Shown here: piece by piece, positions 4,748 through 28,786 of the stretch
Layout: every line of letters begins with the position of its first letter
Numbering within the stretch: position 1 is the stretch's first letter
Program-made: the position numbers and the translations under genes
The notes under the pieces: model-generated
What the model saw: only the letters and a program-made list of their open reading frames with translations
What the model was told of the DNA's origin: nothing
Database searches by the model: none
NCBI GenBank assembly: GCA_023819665.1
Contig: JAMWCP010000003.1
Span: forward strand, 1 to 40,503
DNA: 40,503 nt
From: Candidatus Omnitrophota bacterium
Lineage (GTDB): Bacteria; Omnitrophota; Gorgyraeia; Gygaellales; JAMWCP01
Direction: 5' to 3'

Positions 4748-4750
4748 AAT

Positions 4751-5296: not shown

Positions 5297-5748
5297 AAAA
5301 AGAGATTATCTTTTTTATTTTTGTTAGTTATGTATTAATAAGCAGAGGAATAATCTGTGCAGAAGAGAAAAAGAATTCTGATTTTCTTTCTCCTTCTTCA
5401 GTAAGATACACTTCTTATAACCTTAGAGATCCCTTTGAAGATTACCTTATACCCAAAATGAAACTACAATCTAAAAAAGAAGAAAAAACCCAATTGCCTC
5501 CTGCCGTCTCTATTCAAGGGGTGATTTGGCAAGGAACGGTACCCATGGCTATCATTGATAATAAAGTAGTAAAAGTAGGAGATACAATAGCGGTCAGGAA
5601 TGAATTAATTAAAATTACTGAAATTAATAAAGAAGGGGTCAAATTTCTCTATCAGGGAAATGAATTTAGCTTATTATCTCCCGGTTCCATTTATAAAATT
5701 AGAAGCGAAAAAAGTAAAAAGGATAAAAAAGAAGGAGGGAAAGAATGA
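5293..5748 (+). CDS. PilP/GspB-like pilus assembly protein
   Basis: Signal/TM, LRDPF motif, IQGVIW...AIIDNKVVKVGD beta domain; lies between pilO and the secretin. Confidence 0.75.
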   Translation: MKKEIIFFIFVSYVLISRGIICAEEKKNSDFLSPSSVRYTSYNLRDPFEDYLIPKMKLQSKKEEKTQLPPAVSIQGVIWQGTVPMAIIDNKVVKVGDTIAVRNELIKITEINKEGVKFLYQGNEFSLLSPGSIYKIRSEKSKKDKKEGGKE

Positions 5749-7262
5749 GAAGGATGTCCTTTTTAATTATTAGTATAATAATATTAAGTTTGGTTTTAAT
5801 AAAACCGGCGAACTCAGAATTATCTTCTGATTTTGAAGAGATACTCTTTGATGAAGAGACAGGAGAGGAGCCATTGATTTCTTTAGATTTTAAAGATGCG
5901 AGTTTAAAAGATGTACTTAAGGTTTTTTCTATGCAGGCAGGATTGAATTTTATTGCTTCGGAAGATATACAGGATAAAAAAATTACCCTTTATTTAGAAG
6001 GAGTGCCTTTAAGTAAAGCTATGGAGAAAATATTTGAAGCAAATAATCTTACCTATAAATTTGATGAGAAAGCAAAAATATATATTGTTAAACCTCCTCC
6101 TACCCCTCCGCCTGTAGAACCTATCACTAAAGTCTATTTCTTAAAATATGTTACGGTTGGTTCCTCCTCTTTGGTTAAAGAGATGAGGAGTTATTTAGAG
6201 GAAGAAAAAGGAGGTTCTATAGGAGAAAGCGTGGGAATCACAGAGGCGATCAGAAAAGTTCTTTCTGATAAAGGTAAAGTAGTTGAAGAACCTCAGACTA
6301 ATAGTTTAATTGTTACTGATTTTCCCAAACAATTTCCTCTTGTTGAAGAAGTGATTAAGCGTTTAGATACCCCGATAGTTCAGGTGATATTAGAGGTAGA
6401 AATGTTGGATGTCAATAAAAATAAATTAGAGCGGATGGGGATAAAGTTTGGAGATATTAATGATTTTCCTTCTGTTTTAGCGATGACAATTACGGGAGCA
6501 CAACGAGGGACAAAATTCCCTTTTTCTGCTCTTTGGCCAAAACCGGAAGATGATATTTCTACTCCTCGGTCAGAAGTTACAGAAGCAGGTAAGATAAGTT
6601 TTGCTAATTCCTATCAAGTACTTTTAGATCTTATTAAATCTTATTCTGATACGAAGATTCTAGCGCGTCCTCGGATATTAACTTTAAATAATCGTACTGC
6701 AGAAATAAAGGTTGTTTCTAATGAGGCAGTCAACGAAGAGGTAACTTTTGATGAAAAGGGTAACATTGTCGGGCGTGATTATGAACGTATAGAAGTAGGG
6801 GTTTCTTTAAGAATTACTCCCCAGGTTAATTTAGAAGAGAGAGAGATCACTATGTTTATTATACCAAAAGTTTCTAATACCAAAATAAGTGGTATTTCTT
6901 CTGTAGTGCTTGATCCGGAGGAGCGTACAACAAAGAGCTTGGTAAGAGTAAAAGATGGAGAGACAGTTATTTTAGGAGGACTTATTCATAATGATTTCAA
7001 TAAAATTAATACCAAGGTCCCTCTTTTAGGAGATATACCTGTTATTGGTGCTCTTTTTAGGCATAAAGAAGTCAAAAGAAATAAAGAGAGAGAATTATTG
7101 GTTTTTATAACTCCTCGTATTGTAATGGATAAAAAATTAGCTAAACTTACCGAAATTCCTGTTCCCGAAGAAGAAAAAGGTTTTTATGTTTTTCAGCAAA
7201 AAGATGAACTTCGCTACAAAACCATAGGTAATTTTCTAAATAATTTTGAAAAAGCGAAGTAG
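5745..7262 (+). CDS. pilQ: Type IV pilus/T2SS secretin
   Basis: Signal peptide, ISLDFKDASLKDVL (N0/STN), TNSLIVTD (N3), LARPRILTLNN and KVPLLGDIPVIGALF secretin motifs. Confidence 0.92.
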   Translation: MRRMSFLIISIIILSLVLIKPANSELSSDFEEILFDEETGEEPLISLDFKDASLKDVLKVFSMQAGLNFIASEDIQDKKITLYLEGVPLSKAMEKIFEANNLTYKFDEKAKIYIVKPPPTPPPVEPITKVYFLKYVTVGSSSLVKEMRSYLEEEKGGSIGESVGITEAIRKVLSDKGKVVEEPQTNSLIVTDFPKQFPLVEEVIKRLDTPIVQVILEVEMLDVNKNKLERMGIKFGDINDFPSVLAMTITGAQRGTKFPFSALWPKPEDDISTPRSEVTEAGKISFANSYQVLLDLIKSYSDTKILARPRILTLNNRTAEIKVVSNEAVNEEVTFDEKGNIVGRDYERIEVGVSLRITPQVNLEEREITMFIIPKVSNTKISGISSVVLDPEERTTKSLVRVKDGETVILGGLIHNDFNKINTKVPLLGDIPVIGALFRHKEVKRNKERELLVFITPRIVMDKKLAKLTEIPVPEEEKGFYVFQQKDELRYKTIGNFLNNFEKAK

Positions 7263-7263
7263 T

Positions 7264-8982
7264 ATGCCTAAGGAAAAATATCTAAAACTAGGAGATATGC
7301 TCCTTAAGGAAGGGGTAATTACTCCTCAACAATTAAAAAAAGCTTTGGATATTCAAGCGAAAGAAGGAGGTAGATTAGGAGAGATTTTAATAAAGATGGG
7401 GGCAGCAAAAGAAGAAGAGGTGGTAAGTATTTTGGGAAAGCAATTAGGAATCCCTTATTTTTCTTTAGGCACAGGTATGCTGAAACCAGCAGCGGATCAA
7501 GGATTAGAGGAACTTATTCCTCGAGACTTTGCTATTAAGAATTTGGTTTTGCCACTTTCGCGCGTTTTAAAATCTTTAACTTGCGCAATGTATGATCCTT
7601 TGGATTTAGTTTTGATCGATAATTTAAGAAAACTTACAGGATGCGAAATAAATCCAGTTATTGCTACCCGTGCAGATATCATCAAAGCCATTGAAGAGTT
7701 TTATGGAAAACAGACTTTTTTAAAACAAGCAGTAGAAGCAACCTATGAGGTTGCTCCAGCAATAGAGGAAGCCATAGAGCTTGCTGAGGGACAATTGAGT
7801 TTAGATGCATTGATTGCTCGGGCAGAAGAAGCACCGGTAGTAAAACTTACCGATCTTATTATTCGTCAGGCAATTAATGAACGCGCTTCAGATATTCATA
7901 TCGAGCCATTCAAAGATAGGATTTCTTTAAGATACAGAATAGATGGTAAGCTTTATGAGATACCTCCACCCGCAAAACATCTGCATCTTCCTATTATTTC
8001 GCGTATAAAGATTCTGGCTAAATTGGATATTGCAGAAAAACGTTTACCTCAGGATGGAGCATTCTTTGTGAAGTTAGAAGATAGGGTAATAGATATTAGA
8101 GTTTCTACTATTCCTACTATTTATGGAGAAAAAGTGGTATTGAGACTTCTGGATAAAAGTTCAGTAGTTTTAGATCTTAATCAATTAGGATTTGAAACAC
8201 ATCAGTTGGAACAGATTCGTAAGTGTATAAATATGCCATATGGGCTTATACTTTTAACCGGTCCCACAGGAAGTGGGAAGACCACTACTCTTTATTCGAT
8301 TCTGAATGAGATAAAAGATCCTACAAAAAATATTATTACTATTGAAGATCCTGTAGAGTATCGATTAGAGGGGATAAATCAGGTACAGGTAAAGCCAGAG
8401 ATTGGGCTTACTTTTGCTACAGCACTACGTAGTTTTTTAAGACAGGATCCGGATGTAATGTTAGTAGGAGAAATCAGGGATATGGAGACAGCAGAGATAT
8501 GTATCCGTTCTGCACTTACTGGGCATTTAGTTTTTAGTACTCTCCATACCAATGATGCTCCTTCCGCAATAAATCGTTTAATAGATATTGGAGTACATTC
8601 TTATCTTATCACTCCTTCTTTGTTAATGGTAGTTGCTCAACGATTATTAAGAAAACTCTGTCCTGACTGCAAAGAAGCCTATGAACCTGATCCTGAACAG
8701 TTGGGAGGTATAAAATTGAATGCTGAACTTATATATAGACCTAAGGGTTGTTCTAAGTGTTCTCAGGTGGGGTATAAAGGGAGACTCTGTGTGGCAGAGG
8801 TGATGGTAGTTACTGATAAAATAAGAGAAGCAATTACAAAACATGCTACTTATCAAGAGATAAAGGAATTGTGTATTTCTGAAGGTATGCAGACATTGTA
8901 TCGATCTGCATTAAGAAAGGTAGAATCAGGCATTACTTCTTTAGAAGAAGCACTAAACGTTACAATGGAAATAGGAGGATAA
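7264..8982 (+). CDS. pilB: Type IV pilus extension ATPase PilB (GspE family)
   Basis: MshEN-like KLGDMLLKEG...RLGEILIKMG, Walker A GPTGSGKT, LRQDPDVMLVGEIRD, CxxC...CxxC; ATG 7264 preferred over 7246. Confidence 0.95.
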   Translation: MPKEKYLKLGDMLLKEGVITPQQLKKALDIQAKEGGRLGEILIKMGAAKEEEVVSILGKQLGIPYFSLGTGMLKPAADQGLEELIPRDFAIKNLVLPLSRVLKSLTCAMYDPLDLVLIDNLRKLTGCEINPVIATRADIIKAIEEFYGKQTFLKQAVEATYEVAPAIEEAIELAEGQLSLDALIARAEEAPVVKLTDLIIRQAINERASDIHIEPFKDRISLRYRIDGKLYEIPPPAKHLHLPIISRIKILAKLDIAEKRLPQDGAFFVKLEDRVIDIRVSTIPTIYGEKVVLRLLDKSSVVLDLNQLGFETHQLEQIRKCINMPYGLILLTGPTGSGKTTTLYSILNEIKDPTKNIITIEDPVEYRLEGINQVQVKPEIGLTFATALRSFLRQDPDVMLVGEIRDMETAEICIRSALTGHLVFSTLHTNDAPSAINRLIDIGVHSYLITPSLLMVVAQRLLRKLCPDCKEAYEPDPEQLGGIKLNAELIYRPKGCSKCSQVGYKGRLCVAEVMVVTDKIREAITKHATYQEIKELCISEGMQTLYRSALRKVESGITSLEEALNVTMEIGG

Positions 8983-10208
8983 TGCCTTACTATTTATATA
9001 TTGCCCGCGATAAAACAGGAAAAAGAATTACAGGTAGAGAAGAGGCTTTAAATAGCGAGGAGTTAGCTGCAAGATTGCAGGCACAAGAACTTATTGTAAT
9101 AAATATTATTCCCGAAATAGAAAAGACTGTTAAAACTACTTCTCCTGTAAGATCGAGATTTATTCATCAACATAAACGGATTACTTCGGGTGATCTTGTT
9201 CTCTTTTGTCAACAACTCCATACTCTTTTAGAGGCAGGAGTAACAATTTTGCAAAGTTTAAAGATTATTGCTAAACAGGTTTCCAGCGCAAGATTAAATA
9301 AGATCATTTATGAGATCATCTCCAATATGGAAAAAGGTATGAGTCTTCATGAAGCGATGGCAGAATATCCGGATGTTTTCTCGGAATTATGGTTAAATTT
9401 GATAGAAAGCGGGGAGGCCTCGGGAAATCTGGTAGAAGTTTTGAAGCGTCTTTCAAGTTATTTAGAAAGAAACGCTCAATTCCAACGTAAAGTTATATCT
9501 AGTTTAATGTATCCTGCTATACTTTTGATGGTAGGAATATTCGCTTTGCTCTTTTTGAATATAAAAATTATTCCTGTTTTTGCGGAGCTGTTTAAGAGTT
9601 TTAATGTACAACTTCCTTTGCTTACCCGAATTTTAATTTTTGTAAGTACTATTATTAAAAAGTACTCTATATTTATATTTGCGGCATTAGTGATCTTTAT
9701 ATTTTTATTACGTAAAGTATTAAGGACTAAAGAAGCAAGAAAGAGATGGGAAGAGATTTTATTTAAGTTGCCTTTGGCAGGTGTTTTTTTTCGTTCCCTT
9801 ATTATAGAGCGATTCTCTTCTAACATGGCTACTCTTTTAGAGAGCGGAGTACCTGTTCTTTATGCTTTGGAGATAAGTGAGCGTAGTATTGTTAATTTAG
9901 TAGCAGCCGATATAATTCGTGAGATAAAAAATGAAGTAAGAGGAGGAAAGAGTTTAAGTATTCCTATGGAGAAAACCGGATTCTTTGAACCAATGGTAGT
10001 ACAGATGGTAGCGGTAGGCGAAGAAATTGGAGAGTTGCCTAATATGTTTAAAAGGATAAATAGTTTTTATCAGGAATATATAGATACCTTTTTGACTCGT
10101 TTTACTACTCTGTTTGAACCTTTAATGTTAATAATTTTAGGAGGAATTATTGGTTTGATGGTGGTGGGAATATTTTTACCTTTATTTCAAATTACTCAGA
10201 TACGTTAA
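8982..10208 (+). CDS. pilC: Type IV pilus platform protein PilC (GspF family)
   Basis: Two T2SSF domains (GEASGNL, VGEEIGEL), MYP and FEP motifs, three TMs. Confidence 0.95.
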   Translation: MPYYLYIARDKTGKRITGREEALNSEELAARLQAQELIVINIIPEIEKTVKTTSPVRSRFIHQHKRITSGDLVLFCQQLHTLLEAGVTILQSLKIIAKQVSSARLNKIIYEIISNMEKGMSLHEAMAEYPDVFSELWLNLIESGEASGNLVEVLKRLSSYLERNAQFQRKVISSLMYPAILLMVGIFALLFLNIKIIPVFAELFKSFNVQLPLLTRILIFVSTIIKKYSIFIFAALVIFIFLLRKVLRTKEARKRWEEILFKLPLAGVFFRSLIIERFSSNMATLLESGVPVLYALEISERSIVNLVAADIIREIKNEVRGGKSLSIPMEKTGFFEPMVVQMVAVGEEIGELPNMFKRINSFYQEYIDTFLTRFTTLFEPLMLIILGGIIGLMVVGIFLPLFQITQIR

Positions 10209-18171: not shown

Positions 18172-19605
18172 ATGGAATACGACGTCGTTATTGGTTTAGA
18201 GACACATGTCCAACTAAAAACAAAAACCAAGGCATTCTGTAGTTGTTCTACTGAATTTGGACAGGTGCCTAATACTAGCATTTGTCCAGTTTGCTTGGGG
18301 TTGCCGGGAAGTTTGCCGGTATTGAATAAGCTGGCGTTAGAATTTGCAGTTAAGACTGCTTTGGCGCTTAACTGTCGGATTCAGAGATACTTTCGTTTTG
18401 ATCGTAAAAACTATTTTTATCCGGATTTACCTAAAAATTATCAAATTTCTCAATATGATTTACCTGTGGCTTTGCAAGGTTTTTTAGAGATTGAGCCTCA
18501 AGAGGGAGTAAGGAAATGTATTGAGATAAAGAGGATTCATTTAGAAGAAGATGCAGGAAAGTTAATTCATACTGAAGGTTATTCTTTGATTGATTTTAAT
18601 CGTGCAGGAATTCCTCTTTTAGAAATTGTAAGCGAACCACAAATAAATTCTCCAGAAGAAGCATATGAGTATCTTTTGAGTTTAAAAGAAATTTTGCGTT
18701 ACTTAGAGGTATCGGATTGTGATATGGAAAAAGGGTCTTTGCGTTGTGATGCTAATATCTCCTTAAAAAAAAGAGATCACTTTCAGTTAGGAGCTAAGAT
18801 AGAGCTTAAGAATATGAATTCATTTAAAGCGGTAAAAGATGCACTTGCTTACGAGATTGAACGACAGAGTAAATTATTAGATAAAGGTAGAATATTAACC
18901 CAAGAGACTCGTCTATGGGATGCAAAGGAGGTGAGGACAGTTTCTATGCGTACAAAGGAATCTGCACCAGATTATCGTTATTTTCCCGAACCCGATCTTC
19001 TACCTTTTGTTTTAGAAGATTCTTATATAGAAAAGATAAAAGAGTCTTTACCGGAGTTACCTTATTACAAAAAACATAGATTCATCGAGACATATGGATT
19101 ATCTTTCAATGAGGCAAGGTTTATTGTTTCAGAGAAAAAATTAGCAGATTATTTTGAGTTATGTGTAAATTTGTTTCCTTTTCCAAAAATAATATATAAT
19201 TGGATTGTTGGTCCGTTGATGGGAGAACTTAACGAACGAAAGATAAGCATAGAAGATATAAATATCTTACCACAAGACTTTGTTTGTCTGATTAAAGATG
19301 TAGAATCAGATAAGATAAATAGTCTTAAAGCAAAAGAGGTGTTAAAGAAAATTCTTGATACAGCTAAATCCTATGCGGAAGTTATCAAAGAAGAGTCGGT
19401 TATTATGATCTCTGATAGTAATATTTTAAAAGGAGTAGTTCAGAAGGTGTTAGATGAGAATCCTAAATCAGTTTCGGATTATAAATCAGGAAAGACCAAT
19501 GCCTTGATGTTTTTAGTAGGACAGGTAATGAAGAAGACGCAGAATAACGCGGATCCTAAGATTGTCCAGAAATTACTTAAAGAACTTTTGGATGGTAGTG
19601 TTTGA
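18172..19605 (+). CDS. gatB: Asp/Glu-tRNA amidotransferase subunit B
   Basis: VIGLETHVQL, RKNYFYPDLPKNYQISQ, HLEEDAGK, YRYFPEPDL. Confidence 0.98.
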   Translation: MEYDVVIGLETHVQLKTKTKAFCSCSTEFGQVPNTSICPVCLGLPGSLPVLNKLALEFAVKTALALNCRIQRYFRFDRKNYFYPDLPKNYQISQYDLPVALQGFLEIEPQEGVRKCIEIKRIHLEEDAGKLIHTEGYSLIDFNRAGIPLLEIVSEPQINSPEEAYEYLLSLKEILRYLEVSDCDMEKGSLRCDANISLKKRDHFQLGAKIELKNMNSFKAVKDALAYEIERQSKLLDKGRILTQETRLWDAKEVRTVSMRTKESAPDYRYFPEPDLLPFVLEDSYIEKIKESLPELPYYKKHRFIETYGLSFNEARFIVSEKKLADYFELCVNLFPFPKIIYNWIVGPLMGELNERKISIEDINILPQDFVCLIKDVESDKINSLKAKEVLKKILDTAKSYAEVIKEESVIMISDSNILKGVVQKVLDENPKSVSDYKSGKTNALMFLVGQVMKKTQNNADPKIVQKLLKELLDGSV

Positions 19606-19615
19606 AAAAGATAAG

Positions 19616-20884
19616 ATGAAAAAAATAAACCGTATATTTTTTATATTAGTTTTTATCTCAATTTTAATTTGGATTAGAAATTCGTTTTCGGCATCCACCT
19701 TGGAGCGCAAAAAGAAAGAAGAGCTTTACCGTGAGATTGAAATTTTTTCTTCGGCTTTGGGTATTATAGAAAGTGATTATGTAGAAGAGGTTTCATATAG
19801 GGATCTTATCTACGGAGCATTAAAAGGAATGCTTTCTAGTCTTGATGCGCATAGTCAGTTTCTTGATCCGGAGAGTTATAAAGAGTTGAAAATGGAGACA
19901 GAGGGAAGGTTTGGAGGTTTAGGGATGGAGATAACTATAAAAGATGGTCTTTTGACTGTAGTTTCACCTATCGAAGATACACCCGCTTGGAAAGCAGGAA
20001 TAAAACCCGCTGACCGTATTGTTAAGATCAACGGTCAGTCCACACGTAATATTACTTTAGATGAAGCGGTAAAAAAGTTAAGAGGAAAGCCGGGTACAGA
20101 GGTATATCTTACTATTTTAAGAGAATCAGTGGGTAAGGTTTTAGATTTTAAATTAACGCGTGATATTATAAAACTGCAGGATATTAAAGAAGCCAAAATT
20201 TTGGAAGACAAAATCGGCTATATTCGGATAGTAGAATTTAGAGAGAATACTTATCTTCAGTTAGAACAGGCCTTGAAGCGCCTAAAAGAAGAAGGGGTGT
20301 CTGCTTTAATATTAGACCTTCGGAACAATCCGGGAGGATTATTGGATAGCGCAGTAAAGATTGCAGGAAAATTTATTGAAAGAAAAAAACTCATTGTTTC
20401 TACTAAAGGTAAAAAAGAAAATCAAAGTATAGATTTCTTTTCTGAAGAAAACGATCCTATTTTGGATATACCTATGGTAATATTGGTAAATAAAGGTTCC
20501 GCTTCTGGCTCAGAGATTGTAGCTTCTGCTCTCCAGGATTATAATAGAGCAATTATTTTAGGAGAGAAGACTTTTGGGAAAGGTTCGGTGCAGACAATCT
20601 TTCCCTTATCCGATGGTTCTGCTTTAAAACTTACTACCAGTAAGTATTTTACTCCTAAAGGTAGACTTATTCATAATGAAGGAGTGATGCCGGATATTGT
20701 AGTACAACAGAAAGAATTAAATTCTGAATCTGTAAATGATAAACCTCTGGATATATTTGACCAATTAGAGGATAAAAAAGATGCTCCTTCTTTGACGCAG
20801 CCCTTAGATTATAAAGATGACTTACAGCTTCAACGCGCGGTAGATCTTTTAAAAGCAATTCAGATTTACCAACATAAAAAATAG
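19616..20884 (+). CDS. ctpA: S41 family carboxyl-terminal processing protease
   Basis: PDZ (FGGLGMEI), LDLRNNPGGLL, GSASGSEIV, TFGKGSVQ; ATG 19616 gives a signal/TM start. Confidence 0.94.
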   Translation: MKKINRIFFILVFISILIWIRNSFSASTLERKKKEELYREIEIFSSALGIIESDYVEEVSYRDLIYGALKGMLSSLDAHSQFLDPESYKELKMETEGRFGGLGMEITIKDGLLTVVSPIEDTPAWKAGIKPADRIVKINGQSTRNITLDEAVKKLRGKPGTEVYLTILRESVGKVLDFKLTRDIIKLQDIKEAKILEDKIGYIRIVEFRENTYLQLEQALKRLKEEGVSALILDLRNNPGGLLDSAVKIAGKFIERKKLIVSTKGKKENQSIDFFSEENDPILDIPMVILVNKGSASGSEIVASALQDYNRAIILGEKTFGKGSVQTIFPLSDGSALKLTTSKYFTPKGRLIHNEGVMPDIVVQQKELNSESVNDKPLDIFDQLEDKKDAPSLTQPLDYKDDLQLQRAVDLLKAIQIYQHKK

Positions 20885-20888
20885 AAAT

Positions 20889-21677
20889 ATGAGGAATTTA
20901 ATAAGATATAGGATAGTTGGGAGTATTTTGTTGTTGATTATTTTTATTCAGGCAGGATTTATCTGGAGATTCTTTTTTAAAAAAAGACTGATAGGGCGGT
21001 TTCCTGTAATAAAAGGGGAAATAGTAATTGTTTTAGATGATTGGGGATATAATCTAGATAATTTAGAAATATTAAAAGAAATACCTCAACCTTTAGTATT
21101 GGCTATTTTACCTCATCTGGAATATTCTCGAGAGATTTCAGATTTTGCTAAATCAATCGGTAAAGAAGTAATTTTGCATCTTCCTCTGGAGCCCAAAAAG
21201 AGCAGCGATTATTTGGGCTGGGAAAAATTTACTATCACTGTTAATATGGGTGAAGAAGAGATAAAAAGGATTGTTTCTAAAGCCATAATTAATTTAGGAG
21301 AAGTAAAAGGTGTTTCCAATCATATGGGTTCACGTGCTACAGAACACGAAAAAACAATGAACGTAATCTTTAAGGAAATTAAGAAGAGAGGGTTTTATTT
21401 TTTGGATAACCGTGTTAGTGGTGGTTCTATTTGTAGATATTTATCAAAGAAGCTCTCCTTAAAATTTATCAGTAGAGATATTTTTTTAGATAACGAAAAG
21501 AGGATTGATTATATAAAAACTCAACTGAATAAATTGAAAATTATAGCTTTAAACAAAGGCCACGCAGTAGGAGTGGGACATAATCGTCCTTTAACGCTTA
21601 AGATCTTGAAAGAAGAACTTCCTAAAATAGAAAAAGAGGGATTTAAGTTTGTTTTTTTATCAGAATTAATTAAATAA
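20889..21677 (+). CDS. Divergent polysaccharide deacetylase (YibQ family)
   Basis: IVLDDWG, LHLPLEP, NHMGS, RDIFLDN, VGVGH; N-terminal TM; usual position after ctpA. Confidence 0.92.
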   Translation: MRNLIRYRIVGSILLLIIFIQAGFIWRFFFKKRLIGRFPVIKGEIVIVLDDWGYNLDNLEILKEIPQPLVLAILPHLEYSREISDFAKSIGKEVILHLPLEPKKSSDYLGWEKFTITVNMGEEEIKRIVSKAIINLGEVKGVSNHMGSRATEHEKTMNVIFKEIKKRGFYFLDNRVSGGSICRYLSKKLSLKFISRDIFLDNEKRIDYIKTQLNKLKIIALNKGHAVGVGHNRPLTLKILKEELPKIEKEGFKFVFLSELIK

Positions 21678-21679
21678 AG

Positions 21680-22702
21680 ATGAATATATTAGGGATCGAA
21701 ACATCCTGTGATGAAACCTCCCTTTCTCTGATAAAAGATGGAGAAAAAATTTTAAATCAACAGACTTCTTCTAGTTTAAGATATCACCGTAAGTACGGCG
21801 GAGTGGTTCCTGAGATTGCTTCCCGTATGCATTTAGAGGTAATTGGTTTTTTGTTTGAAGTTTTATGGAAGCAAAGTGGATTGACTCCTAAAGATATAAA
21901 TTTAGTAGCAGTGACTACCGGTCCCGGTCTTTTGGGATCTTTATTGGTAGGGGTATGTTTTGCTAAAGCCATTTCTTACGCTTTAGATGTTTCTTTGGTA
22001 GGAGTAAATCATCTTCACGGACATCTCTATGCAGTTTTTTTAGGTGAGGAGCGTAAAAAGATAAAATTCCCATTTATAGGTTTAGTAGTTTCAGGGGGAC
22101 ATACGTGTTTATTTTATGTAAGGGATTTTTTGGAACCGTACTTATTGGGCTCTACTCTTGATGATGCATGTGGAGAAGTTTTAGATAAAGTTGCCCGTGT
22201 TCTCAACTTAGGCTATCCCGGTGGTCCAATTATTGAAAGATTAGCTAGGAAAGGTAACCCTAAGGGTATTCATTTTAATCCCATCAAAACAAAAAATCCA
22301 TTGGATTTTAGTTTCAGTGGGGTAAAAACCGCTGTGCTTTATTATTTGAAGCAGAGAGGATATAAAATAGATTCTCTTAGTAAAAGCATAAAAGTTCCTT
22401 TAGGATTAATTAGAGATATCTGTGCTTCTTTTCAGGAAGTTGTTTTTGATTCTTTGATAGAAAAATCTTTACTTGCTTGTAAACTTAAAAAAGTAGATAC
22501 TGTGGTAGTAGGCGGAGGGGTAGCAATAAATAATCGGCTAAGAGAGAAATTTTTTATTTCTGCAAAAAAAGAAAAAATAAAAGTTTATTTTTCTCCTCCT
22601 CAATTATGTTTAGATAACGCTAGTATGATTGCAGGTTTAGGGTATATATTATTTAAATTTGGTAAGAGAGATAGTTTTACTTTAAAGATACACACTGATT
22701 AA
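21680..22702 (+). CDS. tsaD: tRNA N6-adenosine threonylcarbamoyltransferase
   Basis: ILGIETSCDET, GGVVPEIASRMH, NHLHGH, VSGGHT, FSFSGVKT, DNASMIA. Confidence 0.97.
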   Translation: MNILGIETSCDETSLSLIKDGEKILNQQTSSSLRYHRKYGGVVPEIASRMHLEVIGFLFEVLWKQSGLTPKDINLVAVTTGPGLLGSLLVGVCFAKAISYALDVSLVGVNHLHGHLYAVFLGEERKKIKFPFIGLVVSGGHTCLFYVRDFLEPYLLGSTLDDACGEVLDKVARVLNLGYPGGPIIERLARKGNPKGIHFNPIKTKNPLDFSFSGVKTAVLYYLKQRGYKIDSLSKSIKVPLGLIRDICASFQEVVFDSLIEKSLLACKLKKVDTVVVGGGVAINNRLREKFFISAKKEKIKVYFSPPQLCLDNASMIAGLGYILFKFGKRDSFTLKIHTD

Positions 22703-22716
22703 AAGGGAGGTTAACA

Positions 22717-23166
22717 ATGTCAGATAGATTAGTTTTTTTAAGGCTCCTTATTTCTTTATTATTAGGTGGTCTTGTAGGATTAGAACGTCAGTTCCATCGG
22801 AGAACCGCAGGATTGCGTACCCATATATTGGTCTGTATGGGGTCGTGTCTTATTATGTTGACATCTCTTTATGTTTTTGATATATATAAAGAAAAAGTTA
22901 ATTTAGATCCCGCCAGAATCGCCGCGGGGGTAATTACCGGGATTGGGTTTTTGGGTGCAGGAACAATTATAAGAGCGGGAGAGGCAGTAAAAGGACTTAC
23001 TACCGCTGCTAGTTTATGGTTGGTAGCAGGAATTGGTTTAGCGGTAGGTTGTGGTTTTTATAGTGCGAGTATTTTTGTTACCGTTTTAGGATTAATTACT
23101 CTTTTTTTCTTAAGGTACATAGAGAATCTCTTTTTTGATTCTAAAATAGATAGGTCTGAAAAATAA
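22717..23166 (+). CDS. MgtC/SapB family membrane protein (short form, no C-terminal domain)
   Basis: GLER, AGLRTHILV, DPARIAAGVITGIGFLGAG, GLTTAASLW. Confidence 0.93.
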   Translation: MSDRLVFLRLLISLLLGGLVGLERQFHRRTAGLRTHILVCMGSCLIMLTSLYVFDIYKEKVNLDPARIAAGVITGIGFLGAGTIIRAGEAVKGLTTAASLWLVAGIGLAVGCGFYSASIFVTVLGLITLFFLRYIENLFFDSKIDRSEK

Positions 23167-23192
23167 ATTAAACTTGTAGGAAGGAGGTGAGT

Positions 23193-23693
23193 ATGGCTTT
23201 AGTCAAGAAACCGCAAGAAAAAATTTTAGACGTAGATGCTTTTCTTCAGGGAAATCTGTCTTTTAAAGAACCCGTTAATTTAAAAATAAATGGGAGATTT
23301 GAGGGGAATTTAGAGACTAAAGGAAACCTTACTATTGGTACCTCAGCGGTAGTAAATGCAGAAATTATCGGAGAAAATATTATTATTGCAGGAAAAGTTA
23401 AAGGTAAGATAGTGGCTAACCATTTGCTTACTCTTTTGCCCACTGCGGTAGTAGAAGGAGAGATTTTCCCGGCGCGTTTAAATGTAGCGGAAGGAGCAAT
23501 CTTTGAAGGAAGTTGTAGAATGTTACAGGATGTATTTAATGTGGAAGAATTAGCACGTTATCTGGAATTGGATACAACCAGTATTTTAGAACTGGCAAAT
23601 GCAGGTAAAATTCCTGCTTTCAAAGATGGTGAGGAATGGAAATTTGAACGCCGAGCCATAGATAATTGGCTTGTTTCAAATAGATTGAAATAG
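23193..23693 (+). CDS. Bactofilin (polymer-forming cytoskeletal protein) fused to a C-terminal HTH_17 domain
   Basis: Beta-helix repeats LKINGRFEGNL, LTIGTSAVVNAEI, IAGKVKGKI, AVVEGEI, VAEGAIFEGSCRM; then FNVEELARYL...GKIPAFK...WKFERRAIDNWL; SD AAGGAGG favours ATG 23193. Confidence 0.92.
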   Translation: MALVKKPQEKILDVDAFLQGNLSFKEPVNLKINGRFEGNLETKGNLTIGTSAVVNAEIIGENIIIAGKVKGKIVANHLLTLLPTAVVEGEIFPARLNVAEGAIFEGSCRMLQDVFNVEELARYLELDTTSILELANAGKIPAFKDGEEWKFERRAIDNWLVSNRLK

Positions 23694-23697
23694 GAGT

Positions 23698-24006
23698 ATG
23701 CCCCAAGAAAAATTACTTACAGTAAGAGAGGTTTCTATTTTGCTTCATCTTACCGAGAAAGAGGTATTGGATTTAGTAGAGAAAGGACAAATCCCTGCTT
23801 ATAAAGTAGCAGGGATATATTTAAGGTTTAGACGCAATGATATAGAGGAATTTAAAAAAGAGAGATTAAAGTCAGGTGAGTTGTCCCCTCAATCTAAAAT
23901 AACTTTAAAGGAAAAAATATATGATTTTTTATATTTTAATGATTTCTATATCTTTTCCCTTTTTTTGATTATCTGGTTAATTGTTATAATTATTAAGAGT
24001 CAATAG
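23698..24006 (+). CDS. HTH_17 domain protein with a C-terminal transmembrane anchor
   Basis: LLTVREVSILL...GQIPAYKVAGIYLRFRRNDIE; C-terminal FYIFSLFLIIWLIVIII. Confidence 0.88.
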   Translation: MPQEKLLTVREVSILLHLTEKEVLDLVEKGQIPAYKVAGIYLRFRRNDIEEFKKERLKSGELSPQSKITLKEKIYDFLYFNDFYIFSLFLIIWLIVIIIKSQ

Positions 24007-24039
24007 AAGGATAGTTTGGGGTTGATCAGGATAGATAAA

Positions 24040-24462
24040 ATGAGAAGTATTAAGATAGAAGAGGCTGTTCGTTTTCATGGACATTTAGGCCCATGGTTGA
24101 TAATGGGGATTTTGGCAGGGGAATTCGCTTTAAAGAGATTGAAGGCAGAAAAATATTTTGGATTAGATGTTAAAGTCAGCGGAGCAAATGATAAGCCTCG
24201 TTCTTGTATTATTGATGGTTTACAGCTTTCTTCAGGGGCAACTTATGGAAAGGGGAATATTAAAAAGTTAAGTAATCATTCTAAAATTGAAATTATTTTT
24301 GTAAATAAAAAAAATAATAAAAAATTAATCTTGATACCAAAAGAGAAAATAGTTAAAGAATTAGATAGGATAACTTCTCATAGAGAGTCGGAAGAAATAG
24401 CGAAAAATTTGTATAAGAAAGATTGCCTACAAATTTTTGACTTAATCTACCATAATTTATAA
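24040..24462 (+). CDS. FmdE/FwdE (formylmethanofuran dehydrogenase subunit E) family protein
   Basis: FHGHLGPWLIMG, SCIIDGLQLSSGATYGKGNI; ATG 24040 preferred. Confidence 0.9.
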   Translation: MRSIKIEEAVRFHGHLGPWLIMGILAGEFALKRLKAEKYFGLDVKVSGANDKPRSCIIDGLQLSSGATYGKGNIKKLSNHSKIEIIFVNKKNNKKLILIPKEKIVKELDRITSHRESEEIAKNLYKKDCLQIFDLIYHNL

Positions 24463-24475
24463 TCGGAGTACCGAT

Positions 24476-25804
24476 ATGGCTCTATCGGGTTTAGAGATAT
24501 ATAAACTTCTTCCGAAGACCAACTGTCGAGAATGCGGATTTTCTACGTGTTTAGCTTTTGCTATGCAGTTGGCAAAAAAGGCAGTAGCTTTAGATAAATG
24601 CCCTTTCTTAACAGAAGAGTCAAAAAAAATTTTGGAGGAATTGAATCTTCCGGCAATAAAATTAATTACCATTGGTAAAAACGATCAAAGAGTACAGATT
24701 GGTAATGAGAATGTGCTTTTTCGACACGAGGAGAGATTTTATAATCCGCCGGGGATAGGCATTATTATTAACGATGATTTAGCGCAGACCGAGGTACTTA
24801 ATATTATTAGAAAGATAAAGGATTTAGAATTTGAACGTATAGGACAGAGGCTCAAAATAGAACTCCTCGCCATAAGAAATAGATCTTCAGAAGAAAATTT
24901 TTTAAAAACCATAGACCTAGTAGTTCATAATACTTCTTTTGCCCTTGTTCTGATGTGCGAAGAACCCCGTAGAGTTAAAAAAGTATTAGAGTTATATAAA
25001 GATTTAAGACCTCTTATCTACCGCATAACCCCAGATAACTTTTTACAATTCTCTCAATTACTTAAAGGAGATAATGTGCCTGTAGTGGTATGGAGTGAGG
25101 ATTTAGAAGGAATTTCTTATTTGACTCAACAGTTAAACAGAAATCAGATAAACGAATTAGTTTTGGAGGTAAGCAATAAATCTCCGGCTTTTGCCCTATG
25201 GCAACTTACCCAAATAAGAAGACTCTCTTTAAAGAAAAAAGAGCGGAGTTTAGGATATCCTGTTTTGGTGTTAATAGAAAATCAGGATAAAGACTTAAGT
25301 CTTTTATTTACAGTTAGTTATATTGCTAAATATGCGGGGATTATACTTCTGGATACATTTTCTCCAGAAGATATTTTTGGTATTTTAACTTTAAGACAGA
25401 ATATATATACTGATCCCCAAAAACCTTTACAGATTGAACCAAAACTTTATAGTATTGGAAGTGTAAATACTTATTCTCCTGTGCTGGTTACTACCAACTT
25501 TTCTCTTACCTATTATACCGTCTTAGGAGAAGTGGAGGCCAGCAGAGTCCCTTCTTATATATTAAGTGTAAACACAGAGGGAATGTCAGTCTTAACCGCA
25601 TGGGCAGCAGAAAAATTTACTCCGGAGAGTATTATTGAAGCAATTGAAAAGTCGGAGTTAAAAAAGTTCGTCAATCACAATCGTATAATTATTCCCGGTT
25701 ATGTAGCAATGATGAGCGGAGATTTGCAAGAGAAGTCAGGTTGGCAGGTAATAGTAGGTCCAAGGGAGGCTGCGGGAATACCTAGGTTTTTAAGAGATTT
25801 ATAA
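24476..25804 (+). CDS. acsC: Corrinoid iron-sulfur protein large (gamma) subunit
   Basis: LPKTNCRECGFSTCLAFA...CP [4Fe-4S]; RQNIYTDPQKP, TTNFSLTY, GMSVLTAWAA, GPREA. Confidence 0.96.
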   Translation: MALSGLEIYKLLPKTNCRECGFSTCLAFAMQLAKKAVALDKCPFLTEESKKILEELNLPAIKLITIGKNDQRVQIGNENVLFRHEERFYNPPGIGIIINDDLAQTEVLNIIRKIKDLEFERIGQRLKIELLAIRNRSSEENFLKTIDLVVHNTSFALVLMCEEPRRVKKVLELYKDLRPLIYRITPDNFLQFSQLLKGDNVPVVVWSEDLEGISYLTQQLNRNQINELVLEVSNKSPAFALWQLTQIRRLSLKKKERSLGYPVLVLIENQDKDLSLLFTVSYIAKYAGIILLDTFSPEDIFGILTLRQNIYTDPQKPLQIEPKLYSIGSVNTYSPVLVTTNFSLTYYTVLGEVEASRVPSYILSVNTEGMSVLTAWAAEKFTPESIIEAIEKSELKKFVNHNRIIIPGYVAMMSGDLQEKSGWQVIVGPREAAGIPRFLRDL

Positions 25805-25889
25805 TTTTTATTTTAGGTTAAAGAATAAGAAATACTTAAACAAAGAAAACAGATAACGAAAATTATTGTAGGGTGGGAGAATTTATATT

Positions 25890-27821
25890 ATGGAAAAGTT
25901 TAAAGTTACTTTTTACCCGGATCATAAGACCGTTGAGATACAGAAGGGGCAGAGTATTCTTTCTGCTGCACTTGCCGCAGGTATCTATATCAACTCAAAT
26001 TGTGGGGGAGAGGGGATCTGTGGGAGATGTAAGATAATTTTAAGAAAGGGAGAGGTTTTTACTCAACCTAGTGGAAGACTTTCGTGGGAAGAGAGAAAAC
26101 ACAACTACTATCTCGCCTGTCTTACTACGGTGCAGAGCGATTTAGAGGTAGAGGTTCCTGAGGAATCACGGTTAAGTTTTGAAAAACTTGCTGTTGAAGA
26201 GATAGCATTGCGTTTTAAAGGATTTTATGAAAAACCTGAAAGTATTGAGACTACCCAATCAATTCTAGATGAAGTTTTTGTACATTCACCATTAGCTACC
26301 AAATTATATATAGAATTGCCTCCACCCAATTTAAATGACCGCGTAAGCGATCTCGAAAGGTTGTATCGAGAGATCCGCAAGAGACACGAAATCCCTATTA
26401 TTCAGACATGCCTTACTAATATAAGATCCTTAGGGCATCTTTTGCGGAATTCAGATTGGAAAGTGACGGTTACGTTGGGGAAGAGAGACGGGGTGGTAGA
26501 GATTGTTCTTGTTGAACCAAATAATACTTCTTTGCATAATTATGGGTTTGCTTTTGATATCGGAACCACTACCATCTGTGGTGAACTTATAGATCTGAAT
26601 AACAAAAAGATTTTAGGGGCACGTGCAATTTATAATAAACAAACAGTGTTTGGTCCTGATGTAATTACGCGTATCATCTACGGTTCGCAAGCCGATGGCT
26701 TGGAGAAGTTACATCATGCCGTCGTTGATGGAATGAATGAAATTATTCAAGAACTCATCCAAGAAGAAAAAATTGATTTAAACAATGTTACCTGTGTTCT
26801 CTGTGCCGGTAATCCTACCATGATCCATCTTTTACTTAAAATAGAACCTACTTATTTAAGGAGAGAGCCTTATATACCGGTTGCTAATTTTATCCCCACT
26901 ATCCGTGCCAGTGAGACAGGAATTAAGATAAATCCACGCGGACTACTTTTCTGTCTACCGGGGGTTTCTAGTTATTTAGGTGGAGATATAGTGGCAGGAG
27001 TACTTTCTTGCGGGATGTATAAAGAAGAGGGAATCTGTCTTTTGATTGATATTGGAACAAACGGAGAAATTGTTTTAGGAAATAGAGATTTTCTTGTAGG
27101 TTGTAGTGCTTCTGCAGGTCCTGCTTTTGAGGGCTCAGGAGTAAACTATGGTATGCGTGCCAGTGGTGGTGCTATACAGAAAGTGAAGATTTTACCCAAC
27201 GCTGATAAGGTAGAATTTTCTACTATCGGTAATATACCCGCACGGGGAATATGTGGTTCAGGATATATTGATATTCTGGCGCAGATGTTGATGACAGGGG
27301 TCATTGATCGTTCAGGAAAGATAAGATGGGAAGACCATCCGCGGATAAAACAAAGAGAGCTTGAGAAAGAGTTTATAATAGCTTTTAAAGAGGAGACTAA
27401 TTTGGATTCTGATATCGTAATTACTGAGACAGATATTGAGAATTTAAAACGTGCAAAAGCCGCCATCTTTGCGGCTACTTCTGTTTTAGTAAAACATATG
27501 AATTTGGATTTGAAACAGATAGAGAAAGTGTTTATTGCGGGTGGATTTGGTAGTTATCTAAATATTCAAAATGCTAAACTTATTGGTTTACTTCCAGATT
27601 TAGAAGAGAGAAGGTTTATCTTTGTAGGAAACAGCTCTTTGATAGGCGCATCTTATGTTCTTTTATCTCATCAGGCAATGCAGAGAGCAGAGGAGCTGGC
27701 ACACAAGATTACTTATTTTGAATTATCGGTGGATCACAGTTATATGGAAGAGTATATGGCTGCTTTGTTTTTCCCGCACACGGATATCTCAAGGTTCCCT
27801 AATCTTAAAGGCATGATATGA
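25890..27821 (+). CDS. acsV: Reductive activator of corrinoid protein (RACo/AcsV; 2Fe-2S plus ASKHA ATPase)
   Basis: CGGEGICGRC...LAC ferredoxin; DIGTTT, DIGTNGE, SAGPAFEG, GICGSG, AGGFG, GNSSL. Confidence 0.93.
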   Translation: MEKFKVTFYPDHKTVEIQKGQSILSAALAAGIYINSNCGGEGICGRCKIILRKGEVFTQPSGRLSWEERKHNYYLACLTTVQSDLEVEVPEESRLSFEKLAVEEIALRFKGFYEKPESIETTQSILDEVFVHSPLATKLYIELPPPNLNDRVSDLERLYREIRKRHEIPIIQTCLTNIRSLGHLLRNSDWKVTVTLGKRDGVVEIVLVEPNNTSLHNYGFAFDIGTTTICGELIDLNNKKILGARAIYNKQTVFGPDVITRIIYGSQADGLEKLHHAVVDGMNEIIQELIQEEKIDLNNVTCVLCAGNPTMIHLLLKIEPTYLRREPYIPVANFIPTIRASETGIKINPRGLLFCLPGVSSYLGGDIVAGVLSCGMYKEEGICLLIDIGTNGEIVLGNRDFLVGCSASAGPAFEGSGVNYGMRASGGAIQKVKILPNADKVEFSTIGNIPARGICGSGYIDILAQMLMTGVIDRSGKIRWEDHPRIKQRELEKEFIIAFKEETNLDSDIVITETDIENLKRAKAAIFAATSVLVKHMNLDLKQIEKVFIAGGFGSYLNIQNAKLIGLLPDLEERRFIFVGNSSLIGASYVLLSHQAMQRAEELAHKITYFELSVDHSYMEEYMAALFFPHTDISRFPNLKGMI

Positions 27822-28786
27822 TAAAAGAATATATTGAAAATTGGTCGGGAGAAGTAAATACACTAGTTATTGGAGCTACTCCTGAAGAAGGAGGTAGCCG
27901 GCGTTTTAGTGTGAAGATAGGGGGCGAAAGGACATTACCTTTTTTATTTAAAGAAGCGTTGCTTCCTTTTAAACCTGTAATTGCTTATGAGATTTGGGAT
28001 ATAGAGCCAATTGATTGGGCAACAGCTCTATCTAAATATTATGGAGATGTTTGGGGTAACACCTTGGAGTGGGCAGATAAGTTAATTAGAGAATATAAAG
28101 CAGAACTTCTGTGTTTAAAACTAGCAGGAGCACATCCGGAAATAGGGAAAGATTTAGATGAGATAGTAAAACTTTTAGAGGGTCTTTTAAAGAAAGTCGA
28201 TATACCTTTGATTATTATTGGCTGTGGAGATGTTCAGAGAGACAACTTTATTCTTCCTTTGTGTTCTCAGATACTTAAAAATGAACGTTGTCTTATTGGG
28301 GAGGTAAATCAGGACAATTATAAAACTTTAACTGCAGCAGTATTGGCTGATGGTCATAGTATTATTGCTCAATCTCCTATTGATATAAATATTGCGAAAC
28401 AGTTGAATATTTTAATTTCTGATATGGGTTTGCCTTTGGAACGGATTGTGATCAATCCCACGGTGGGTGCCTTAGGATATGGTTTAGAATATACCTATTC
28501 TATTATGGAGCGTTTGAGATTAGCCGCCTTAAACAACGATAGAGTAGTAGCATCACCTTTTATCTGTTTTGTAGGACAAGAGAGTTGGCGGGTAAAAGAA
28601 GCAACTACTCCCGAGAAAGAATTTTCTCGTTGGGGTAGTGAATGGCGGCGTGGTTATCTATGGGAATTGATTACTGCTGGCGCTTTATTACAGGCAGGAG
28701 CAAATATTTTGGTGATGAGACATCCAAAAGCGATAGAAAAAATAAAGGAGTATATAGACAAACTATATGAATTTAAAATAAATTAA
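27818..28786 (+). CDS. acsD: Corrinoid iron-sulfur protein small (delta) subunit
   Basis: IGGERTLPF, SPIDINIAKQLN, LGYGLEYTYSIMERLRLAAL, VMRHP. Confidence 0.96.
   Translation: MIKEYIENWSGEVNTLVIGATPEEGGSRRFSVKIGGERTLPFLFKEALLPFKPVIAYEIWDIEPIDWATALSKYYGDVWGNTLEWADKLIREYKAELLCLKLAGAHPEIGKDLDEIVKLLEGLLKKVDIPLIIIGCGDVQRDNFILPLCSQILKNERCLIGEVNQDNYKTLTAAVLADGHSIIAQSPIDINIAKQLNILISDMGLPLERIVINPTVGALGYGLEYTYSIMERLRLAALNNDRVVASPFICFVGQESWRVKEATTPEKEFSRWGSEWRRGYLWELITAGALLQAGANILVMRHPKAIEKIKEYIDKLYEFKIN

Follow-up and report, generated by a model that had tools for sequence, protein, structure and literature searches.

The window analysed here is a 40,503-nucleotide (nt) stretch of contig JAMWCP010000003.1 from a Candidatus Omnitrophota genome (GenBank assembly GCA_023819665.1; 1.24 Mb and 94.8% complete), and our subject is a pair of adjoining genes within it, referred to as A and B. 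Gene A encodes a bactofilin fused to a winged helix-turn-helix (HTH) domain, and is the only match to the Pfam Bactofilin family in this genome, while gene B encodes a small protein with an HTH domain of the same family followed by a predicted transmembrane (TM) helix (Table 1). We prefer the ATG at 23193 as the start of gene A over the in-frame GTG at 23187 given in the open reading frame (ORF) list because the GTG falls within the Shine-Dalgarno sequence GGAGG. The stop codon of gene A (TAG, 23691–23693) is separated from the ATG of gene B by 4 nt, and an AGGAG ahead of gene B overlaps this stop.

Table 1. Features of the A–B gene pair (aa, amino acids; pLDDT, predicted local distance difference test score; wHTH, winged HTH). 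Positions are those of the window.
Feature	Position	Strand	Evidence or remark
Shine-Dalgarno GGAGG of gene A	23183–23187	+	5 nt before ATG; read from sequence
Gene A, bactofilin–wHTH fusion, 166 aa	23193–23693	+	ORF list, Pfam
N-terminal tail of A, residues 1–11, MALVKKPQEKI	23193–23225	+	basic; pLDDT <50
Bactofilin β-helix domain of A, residues 12–108, including F104	23226–23516	+	Pfam, AlphaFold2, Foldseek, PDB profile alignments
Short linker of A, residues 109–114	23517–23534	+	alignment
Acidic wHTH of A, residues 115–166	23535–23690	+	Pfam, AlphaFold2, alignments
Gene B, tail-anchored wHTH protein, 102 aa	23698–24006	+	ORF list, Pfam, AlphaFold2
wHTH of B, residues 6–58	23713–23871	+	Pfam, AlphaFold2, alignments
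Juxtamembrane helix and aromatic motif of B, residues 70–85, consensus DFxYFNDFY	23905–23952	+	alignment, AlphaFold2
C-terminal TM helix of B, residues 82–101	23941–24000	+	hydropathy, AlphaFold2

Protein A matches Bactofilin (PF04519) over residues 12–108 with 83.7 bits (cut-off 27.9) and HTH_17 (PF12728) over residues 115–160 with 38.3 bits (cut-off 27). In the AlphaFold2 model, which like that of B was built on a 34-sequence alignment, a predicted right-handed β-helix (residues 18–108, with block-mean pLDDT of 87–97 for its strands) is joined to a winged HTH (residues 117–165), with a mean pLDDT of 84.9 and a predicted template-modelling score (pTM) of 0.62 for the whole protein. The winged HTH has helices at residues 117–124, 128–137 and 153–165 and a hairpin at 143–152, and its conserved positions include E125, E133, W134 (Leu in the window protein), K139, W149 and E152; the linker that precedes it carries an insertion of up to 13 alignment columns in other clades. 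Foldseek aligned the β-helix with BacA (2n3d; template-modelling score by target 0.84) and the Thermus bactofilin (6rib; 0.89) at root-mean-square deviations (rmsd) of 1.6–1.9, and the HTH part with RdfS, BldC (0.74–0.79 by target), Pukovnik Xis, CbpM and RacA, though it should be noted that no Foldseek row for A reached E ≤ 0.001 and the best stood at 2.4e-3. A profile search of PDB sequences found BacA at 2.9e-11 and the Thermus bactofilin at 1.3e-9, and in these alignments F104 of A, a position held by F, L, I or V in the family, falls on BacA F130 and Thermus F105. By domain score, predicted fold and interface residue A is a member of the bactofilin family.

Protein B matches HTH_17 over residues 6–56 with 38.0 bits (cut-off 27), as do all 34 of the B family members searched, and its AlphaFold2 model (mean pLDDT 82.2) consists of a winged HTH (residues 6–58), a short linker, and helices at residues 70–80 and 82–101. 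The second of these helices coincides with a hydrophobic stretch (19-residue Kyte-Doolittle mean of 2.52 from residue 83), and the strongest such stretch lies within the last 30 residues in 77/77 B orthologues. As a single residue remains after this helix, we regard B as a tail-anchored membrane protein without a periplasmic domain, with its membrane insertion and topology being predicted from the model and hydropathy. The most conserved part of B is the juxtamembrane motif (D76 in 100, F77 in 100, F80 in 99, F83 in 99 and Y84 in 102 of 102 sequences), which suggests that B has a role of its own. Foldseek aligned the B HTH with BldC (0.77–0.83 by target; rmsd 1.1–1.2), Pukovnik Xis, RdfS, RacA and CbpM, again with no row at E ≤ 0.001, and single-sequence searches of the PDB with the HTH domains of both proteins returned chance-level rows only (glutathione transferases and a portal protein, for example).

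The sequence strings used in an earlier note on this DNA, which was made from the letters alone, are all present: GAIFEGSCRM at the end of the β-helix, DTTSILEL and TEKEVLDL as the recognition helices of the pair, and RKQTIYNW in the protein encoded from 3049. Its description of a bactofilin β-helix fused to HTH_17 and of a second HTH_17 protein with a C-terminal TM helix encoded 4 nt later agrees with the ORFs, Pfam, hydropathy and AlphaFold2, the domain scan it had proposed placed both A domains above their cut-offs, and the Phe it had taken to be typical of the polymerisation interface is the F104 that aligns with the BacA and Thermus residues.

Homologs of A are numerous, with 954 proteins found at E ≤ 0.001 among 1266 candidates in a word-indexed search, and all 120 of the matches listed were 165–171 aa long and carried both PF04519 and PF12728. 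Where the source gives them a name, it is ‘polymer-forming cytoskeletal protein [Candidatus Omnitrophica/Omnitrophota]’ or ‘excisionase family DNA binding protein’, and the relatives of B bear the same Omnitrophica/Omnitrophota taxon labels. At least 568 stretches in a one-genome-per-species scan encode a relative of A, and the best 80 of these are mostly labelled Omnitrophota/Omnitrophica, the other submitters’ labels among them being ‘uncultured Planctomycetales’, ‘bacterium’, one Margulisiibacteriota and one Pacebacteria. In an exhaustive profile search, 1.84 billion cluster representatives yielded 44 proteins at ≤ 1e-30, and both domains are covered by about 20 representatives, so that the fusion family is compact. 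The architecture is thus already annotated in public databases, with both domains, but uncharacterised: we found no description in the literature of a bactofilin in Omnitrophota/Omnitrophica or of a bactofilin with HTH_17, which agrees with the statement in the earlier note that no characterised bactofilin with a fused DNA-binding domain was known. Papers on bactofilins and helix-turn-helix proteins were judged by their titles and the start of their abstracts, and none of those listed pointed to a fused HTH; the figure supplements of PMC12448750, on bactofilin N-termini and forms with a TM segment, might include domain architectures.

Gene A is followed by B wherever enough sequence is available. 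B lies directly 3' of A in 30/30 loci from the window’s order, including the window itself (29 by ORF and blastp, and L014 by tblastn), in 20/20 loci from 11 other genomes of the same class and nine of other classes, and in 77/80 species-representative loci, where the contigs of the other three stop 70–340 nt past A. The three sets overlap, and after duplicate removal they provide the 102 unique A–B pairs used below. We then called presence from the best E-values per genome (A ≤ 1e-20 and B, searched with a profile, ≤ 1e-15) in 301 genomes of the phylum, in which any A match was found in 294, A in 266 and B in 281. The thresholds fall in a clear gap for B, with the weakest B in an A-holding genome at about 7e-19 and the strongest match in the remaining genomes at 1e-11. 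Both proteins were present in 266/301 genomes (approximately 88%), B without A in 15/301, neither in 20/301 (nine of these at least 90% complete) and A without B in 0/301, with the reservation that related genomes are not independent in these counts. The pair is therefore co-conserved, as the earlier note had asked to be surveyed, and it is a hallmark of the phylum Omnitrophota.

Four of the 15 genomes with B but no A represent assembly edges, with the last residues of A at the contig start in G131 and B at the contig start in G175, G124 and G300. In the other 11 the TsaD–MgtC–B or TsaD–B locus is intact and A is gone; these are G033, G163 and G015 from one genus, G226, G273 and G287, and G087, G047, G093, G063 and G109 from one family in which other members retain A, and we count at least five separate losses of A. 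No Pfam Bactofilin match above cut-off was found in the 12 genomes of this kind that were tested, and the one sub-threshold row, in G273, lies inside a 2849-aa frame. A bactofilin match in G043 was considered as an A orthologue and rejected, being a 171-aa protein with a signal-peptide-like N-terminus. As A is never found without B while B is kept after the loss of every bactofilin, A appears to depend on B and not the reverse.

One family has a B of about 132 aa, whose HTH and juxtamembrane motif are separated by an acidic insert of 30 residues (L166, L176, L183 and L040), and this long form is present both with A (L040) and without it (L166, L176 and L183, from genus g37). A longer relative of B, whether an A–B fusion or other, was also looked for, and none of the 164 candidates gave a score, which is weak evidence. 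We also compared the pair with known HTH families, and the model for the MADS MAD1 HTH or phage excisionase (NF047737) gave 46.5 and 42.2 bits, short of its cut-off of 80, PADLOC mad1 gave 17.9 bits and for B only, and PHROGs returned generic HTH families only; the neighbouring genes are housekeeping genes. DUF4004, the family of the Bacillus regulator BacR, had no Pfam match in A, B or 34 relatives of B.

The HTH domains of A and B are related to each other (hhalign probability 98.3) and both are HTH_17 domains by score and fold, yet neither has the basic contact surface, on recognition helix and wing together, expected of DNA readers. Across the 102 pairs the A HTH (residues 114–162) has a net charge of −2.65 (range −5 to +1), whereas 29 other HTH_17 domains, taken from 13 genomes of the phylum and belonging to about four orthologous groups, stand at +4.5 per 50 aa (range +2 to +7.3). 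This comparison set left out L161, which is an A orthologue, and L139, and as the latter has a charge of +7 its omission does not favour the reading of the HTH domains as acidic. B is divided in this respect, with a charge of +1.2 for the HTH overall (range −3 to +5), −2.3 for the helix-2/helix-3 region (range −4 to +4) and +3.8 for the wing (range +3 to +4).

BldC provides a reference for individual positions, and according to the accessible part of the BldC–DNA study (PMC5859096) the phosphate contacts are made by T27, T29 and K33, the base contacts by K26 and R30 (binding is lost in R30A), and the wing contacts by H46, R47 and R48, of which R48 together with R41 docks in the minor groove. 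In the same account BldC dimerises head to tail, F21, V23 and W31 packing on L11', I40', T42', L43' and G44', with a salt bridge between R22 and E16', and G44E destroys the dimer. In profile alignments of A with BldC, an acidic residue (E/D) occupies position 125 in 101/102 sequences at BldC R22, position 133 in 100/102 at R30 and position 152 in 93/102 at R50, while W134 is found in 95/102 at W31. In B, acidic residues are found at position 22 (E/D in 93/102, at BldC T27), position 25 (D/E in 77/102, at R30) and position 28 (E/D in 81/102, at K33), the window protein having E22, D25 and E28. The wing of B is basic and conserved (Y35, K36, G39, R43, R45 and R46), with R43 in 102/102 at the position of BldC R48 and K/R45 also in 102/102. 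The conserved acidic residues point to selection and not decay, and on these alignments the HTH domains of both A and B look suited to protein contacts and not to DNA reading.

The earlier note had offered two options, in which either (a) arrayed DNA-binding heads and a membrane anchor tether the chromosome or (b) the HTH pair has become a protein–protein clasp that anchors the filament to the membrane. The acidic positions in A and B across the 102 pairs fit the protein contacts of option (b) better, and option (a) looks weakened, with the basic wing of B kept. The second half of option (b), in which B serves as the anchor, is not supported, in view of the N-terminal tails of most A proteins, of the retention of B in genomes without a bactofilin, and of A never occurring without B.

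The earlier note saw no obvious membrane-targeting tail on A, and this does not hold for its relatives. Although the window protein begins MALVKK, Phe is found at position 2 or 3 in 78/102 relatives, 45 of which begin MAFKKK, and a looser pattern of a hydrophobic residue followed by Lys/Arg fits 86/102, in a sample that leans heavily on the window’s order and left out 9/111 A sequences without the anchor pattern, most of which by eye hold MAFKK or MPLRKK. The MAFKKK tail resembles the membrane-targeting sequence of BacA (MFSKQAKS), in which F2 and K4/K7 are essential according to the part of the BacA study available (PMC12448750). One class differs in having tails of MAKKKEE or MANNKKKEE with no hydrophobic residue. 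In the window’s lineage A probably reaches the membrane by itself, which makes it unlikely that B is no more than an anchor there.

Our preferred interpretation, which we hold tentatively and with somewhat less than even confidence, is that the A filament is a scaffold dedicated to B, which it holds through HTH–HTH contacts, and that B is the effector; this is supported by the nesting of A within the distribution of B, by their unvarying adjacency and by the acidification seen in both domains. A would polymerise through the bactofilin β-helix at the inner membrane face, where in the window’s order the membrane-targeting-like N-terminus may aid attachment, and the filament would display a row of acidic winged HTH domains on short linkers. 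These domains, no longer DNA readers, would dock the cytoplasmic winged HTH of tail-anchored B, and the likely contact would be head-to-tail as between neighbouring BldC, Xis or RdfS protomers, with L124, E125, V126, E133 and W134 on the side of A and the wing residues Y35, K36, G38 and G39 on that of B. The filament would then gather or position B, B would be able to work without A, and its activity at the membrane may involve the DFxYFNDFY motif.

A hint at the interface comes from the wing of B. Where A is present, all 102/102 pairs have an aromatic residue at 35 and K/R at 36, while the motif at residues 34–36 in nine B proteins from genomes without A is AYK in four, THN in three, SHH in one and ISK in one (nine of the 11 such proteins were parsed, with L180 and L182 left out). 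Residue 35 aligns with BldC I40 in the head-to-tail interface and residue 39 with BldC G44. That residues 35–36 track the presence of A is suggestive and no more.

Several observations weigh against a scaffold that holds B through HTH–HTH contacts. Y35/K36 changed in only two of the at least five lineages that lost A, and there was no co-variation between the net charge of the A HTH and that of the B HTH or its wing (Spearman −0.07 and +0.05, respectively; n = 102). Direct A–B binding is here an inference. The basic wing of B would also suit DNA binding in the minor groove. An acidic or Asn residue at the position of BldC R30 is also found in basic stand-alone HTH_17 proteins of these genomes (TIYEWL and TIYNWL) which presumably bind DNA, and an acidic residue at this position alone is weak evidence; the argument consequently rests on overall charge and several positions taken together. 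It should also be noted that A was searched with a single sequence and B with a profile, such that A was sought less sensitively in the distribution analysis, and this was offset by the inspection of loci and the Pfam searches. Finally, a divergent bactofilin–HTH lineage outside the sampled phylum, described below, has no adjoining B. A complex prediction of full-length A with residues 1–86 of B, made without controls, gave ipSAE values of 0.16 and 0.15, below the mark of 0.32, and is counted neither way.

A DNA–membrane tether, in which the wing of B, perhaps with the HTH of A, binds DNA so that B ties the nucleoid to the membrane and the bactofilin arrays or positions these ties, in the manner of chromosome anchoring by RacA–DivIVA, would account for the conserved basic wing (K36, R43 in 102/102, K/R45 and K/R46, at or near BldC R41 and R48) and for the DNA-bound state of the nearest solved relatives of both domains (BldC, the RacA DNA-binding domain, Pukovnik Xis and RdfS), and B persisting without A fits B having a ligand of its own. 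We nonetheless consider a tether rather unlikely, as both recognition helices have conserved acids at positions where BldC contacts phosphates or bases, the charges of the A HTH and of B helix-2/helix-3 contrast with those of other HTH_17 domains in the phylum, and no parS-like repeat or ParAB neighbour was seen among the housekeeping genes around the pair. That B is purely the membrane anchor of the filament, with an HTH–HTH clasp only holding the bactofilin on the membrane, is to our minds distinctly unlikely: an idle anchor should be lost once A has gone, yet B is kept in 11 genomes from at least five lineages, the Phe-then-Lys tails of 78/102 A proteins (in the sample biased to the window’s order) resemble the BacA membrane-targeting sequence, and the juxtamembrane aromatic motif suggests that B has its own role. 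What speaks for an anchor is that A is never found without B and that A in the class with hydrophilic tails might need a different route to the membrane.

There is a precedent for a switch, in which one HTH would be a transcription factor that the membrane or filament keeps inactive until a signal sets it free, as the accessible text on BacR of Bacillus subtilis (PMC13649987) describes a protein encoded with bactofilins and bound by BacE and BacF, which loses DNA binding once bound and whose membrane location depends on the bactofilins. Here B is covalently tail-anchored with no cleavage site or sensor domain evident, the HTH of A is joined to the polymer, the recognition helices of A and B are acidic and DUF4004 was not matched, and we judge a switch of this type improbable. 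A further rival is that A and B do not interact and share an operon for expression only, with each HTH having an unrelated partner, and the contact between them does rest on inference, in a region of packed same-strand and unrelated housekeeping genes where promoter- and terminator-like sites are not above chance. This we regard as very improbable, because A and B adjoin in every locus with enough sequence while their other neighbours change between classes, A without B was seen in none of 301 genomes in a strictly nested distribution, and the acidified form of this domain family, a rare one, is found in A and B alike. The scaffold dedicated to B remains our preferred interpretation.

A shares with the canonical bactofilins, BacA and that of Thermus thermophilus, the same Pfam domain, a predicted β-helix, a hydrophobic C-terminal interface residue (F104 compared with F130 and F105, respectively) and a short basic N-terminal tail which in most relatives is membrane-targeting-like. 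It differs from them in having a folded 52-residue winged HTH in place of the usual disordered C-terminal tail, in its dedicated partner gene, and in being the only bactofilin of its genome. RodZ, which has an HTH_25 domain, a TM helix and a periplasmic RodZ_C domain, offers another comparison, and in work from van den Ent et al. in 2010 its N-terminal cytoplasmic HTH, followed by one TM helix, is said to bind the MreB polymer and not DNA. B resembles RodZ in combining an HTH with a TM helix and in the polymer binding proposed for it, and differs in having HTH_17 instead of HTH_25 and a single residue past the TM helix. B was also considered as a replacement for RodZ, and this was rejected because the genome has its own RodZ (contig C30) and MreB. 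By structure and by sequence, both HTH domains come closest to BldC, Xis and RdfS, where the BldC interface residues F21, V23 and W31 correspond to L124, V126 and W134 of A, and I40 and G44 to Y35 and G39 of B; these relatives are basic and assemble on DNA, whereas A and B are acidic at DNA-contact positions and BldC R22 is Glu in A.

A parallel in operation is the recruitment by BacA of the bitopic protein PbpC, where the polymer recognises the cytoplasmic N-terminal part of its client (PMC12448750, in the part available). B has the same single-pass client topology, as predicted, without a periplasmic or enzymatic domain, and the recognition proposed for A and B is from HTH to HTH, while for BacA and PbpC it is of a short peptide on the β-helix. 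BacR (YhbD, DUF4004), as far as the accessible text goes (PMC13649987), is likewise an HTH protein encoded beside bactofilins, BacE and BacF, and bound and held at the membrane, and differs in being a soluble DNA-binding protein which regulates the operon, whereas here one HTH is fused to a bactofilin and the other is tail-anchored, both with acidic recognition helices; its HTH family is also different, given the lack of a DUF4004 match. In RacA–DivIVA and BacNOP–PadC–ParAB, DNA is connected with a polymer or scaffold, at the membrane or pole (for BacNOP, see the available part of PMC5703909). The RacA DNA-binding domain is among the best matches to the HTH domains of A and B, though RacA has Arg at the BldC R30 position, following the accessible part of PMC5859096, where A has Glu, and no ParAB or PadC-like gene neighbours the pair. 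CbpM in complex with the CbpA J-domain (PDB 3ucs, for which a partial description was available) is an example of a MerR-like fold used in a protein complex. By analogy, the A–B pair would work like BacA–PbpC and resembles BacR–BacE/F and RodZ–MreB, while being a member of none of these systems.

Omnitrophota are uncultivated and often ultra-small, and their cell biology is essentially unknown. We found no match to Tubulin/FtsZ (PF00091) in any of the 301 genomes, 297 of which are at least 90% complete, using a search which as a control matched 13/14 model genomes, and nothing above cut-off for TIGR00065 (FtsZ) in 101 genomes; MreB and RodZ are both encoded in the window genome. A 2016 survey had found FtsZ in one of three ‘Omnitrophica’ genomes and, in the part accessible, left the matter open (PMC5147048), and a 2025 paper, also accessible in part, grouped Ca. 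Omnitrophota with phyla having highly conserved dcw genes (PMC12283558). The missing FtsZ match raises the interest of a cytoskeletal module and does not link this module to division, and we see only a slim chance that excisionase-type winged HTH domains have here become protein–protein hooks, by which the acidified heads on the bactofilin catch the wing of the tail-anchored HTH protein in BldC-like head-to-tail contacts, and that the resulting membrane-attached lattice has a part in FtsZ-independent division or envelope organisation of these very small cells. With the pair in approximately 88% of the sampled genomes and no FtsZ match, it is an obvious choice with which to begin heterologous cell-biological work.

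Bactofilins are known as bare β-helix polymers with disordered tails, and how they choose clients and reach the membrane is an active question. Against this background, a folded tail domain with a dedicated and phylum-wide partner gene amounts to a defined and testable client-recognition module, and the nested pattern of loss gives a directional hypothesis of a kind rarely available from sequence alone. If our interpretation is true, the pair would clearly exemplify the re-use of a DNA-binding fold in protein assembly.

The divergent bactofilin–HTH lineage is represented by P0298, a 187-aa protein which starts MKFFPQKKR and has an acidic HTH. It is found on four metagenome contigs (L185–L188; for example L187:2501–3064) with a G+C content of about 50%, compared with 34% for the window, and is only 28–33% identical to the A proteins of the sampled phylum, which is why we place it in another lineage. 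Its 3' neighbour is a membrane protein of 261–262 aa which matches the conserved TM helix of mechanosensitive channels, and upstream there is a protein with an AMPK1_CBM domain and, by eye, a ParA-like part. A metagenome scan with a further divergent fusion, P0263, found no relative. HTH_17-like domains also occur as tandem repeats in P0370 (479 aa, seven repeats), P0375 (417 aa, seven) and P0295 (231 aa, three), which resemble, in one covalent chain, the arrays that BldC-type proteins build non-covalently from this domain.

An N-terminal HTH_17 domain also precedes a glutamine-synthetase-like part, recognised by eye, in a 510-aa protein encoded at L195:528–2060 on the minus strand, and similar HTH_17 frames of about 520 aa are found in G213 and G243. 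It may be noted that the MerR-type regulators TnrA and GlnR bind glutamine synthetase in Bacillus (PMC5859096, in the part available). The idea that B might be a general receptor for HTH_17-tagged proteins was dropped, these frames being by eye a glutamine-synthetase-like fusion and a 326-aa frame of the window genome being an unrelated weak match.

In the window the gene order is GatA, GatB, an S41 peptidase, a divergent polysaccharide deacetylase, TsaD, MgtC, A, B, an FmdE-domain protein and acetyl-CoA-pathway genes, and the region around A and B is a densely packed same-strand series of unrelated housekeeping genes. The block from GatB to MgtC recurs within the class of the window genome, different genes (AcpS-like and YdjC-like, read by eye) are found 3' of B in another class, and the neighbours other than A and B are in general housekeeping genes which vary between clades. 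A scan of 19500–26000 found promoter-like and terminator-like sites at a frequency not above that of shuffled controls, and among sequencing runs over 21680–24470 no RNA run was listed and one DNA run covered a small share (0.10). Directly 3' of B, the genes at 24016–28786 encode the FmdE-domain protein, a corrinoid Fe-S protein (CdhD and FeS domain), a RACo-type reductive activator and a second CdhD-family protein, and represent the acetyl-CoA (Wood-Ljungdahl) pathway in this 1.24-Mb genome. At 3049–10208 there is a type IV pilus gene cluster, which opens with a small, basic and stand-alone HTH_17 protein (3049–3234; charge +6 over 50 aa) followed by PilM, PilO, an unassigned 151-aa ORF, a secretin, a PilB-type ATPase with an MshEN domain, and PilC. 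Close relatives of this HTH_17 protein recur in many genomes of the phylum.

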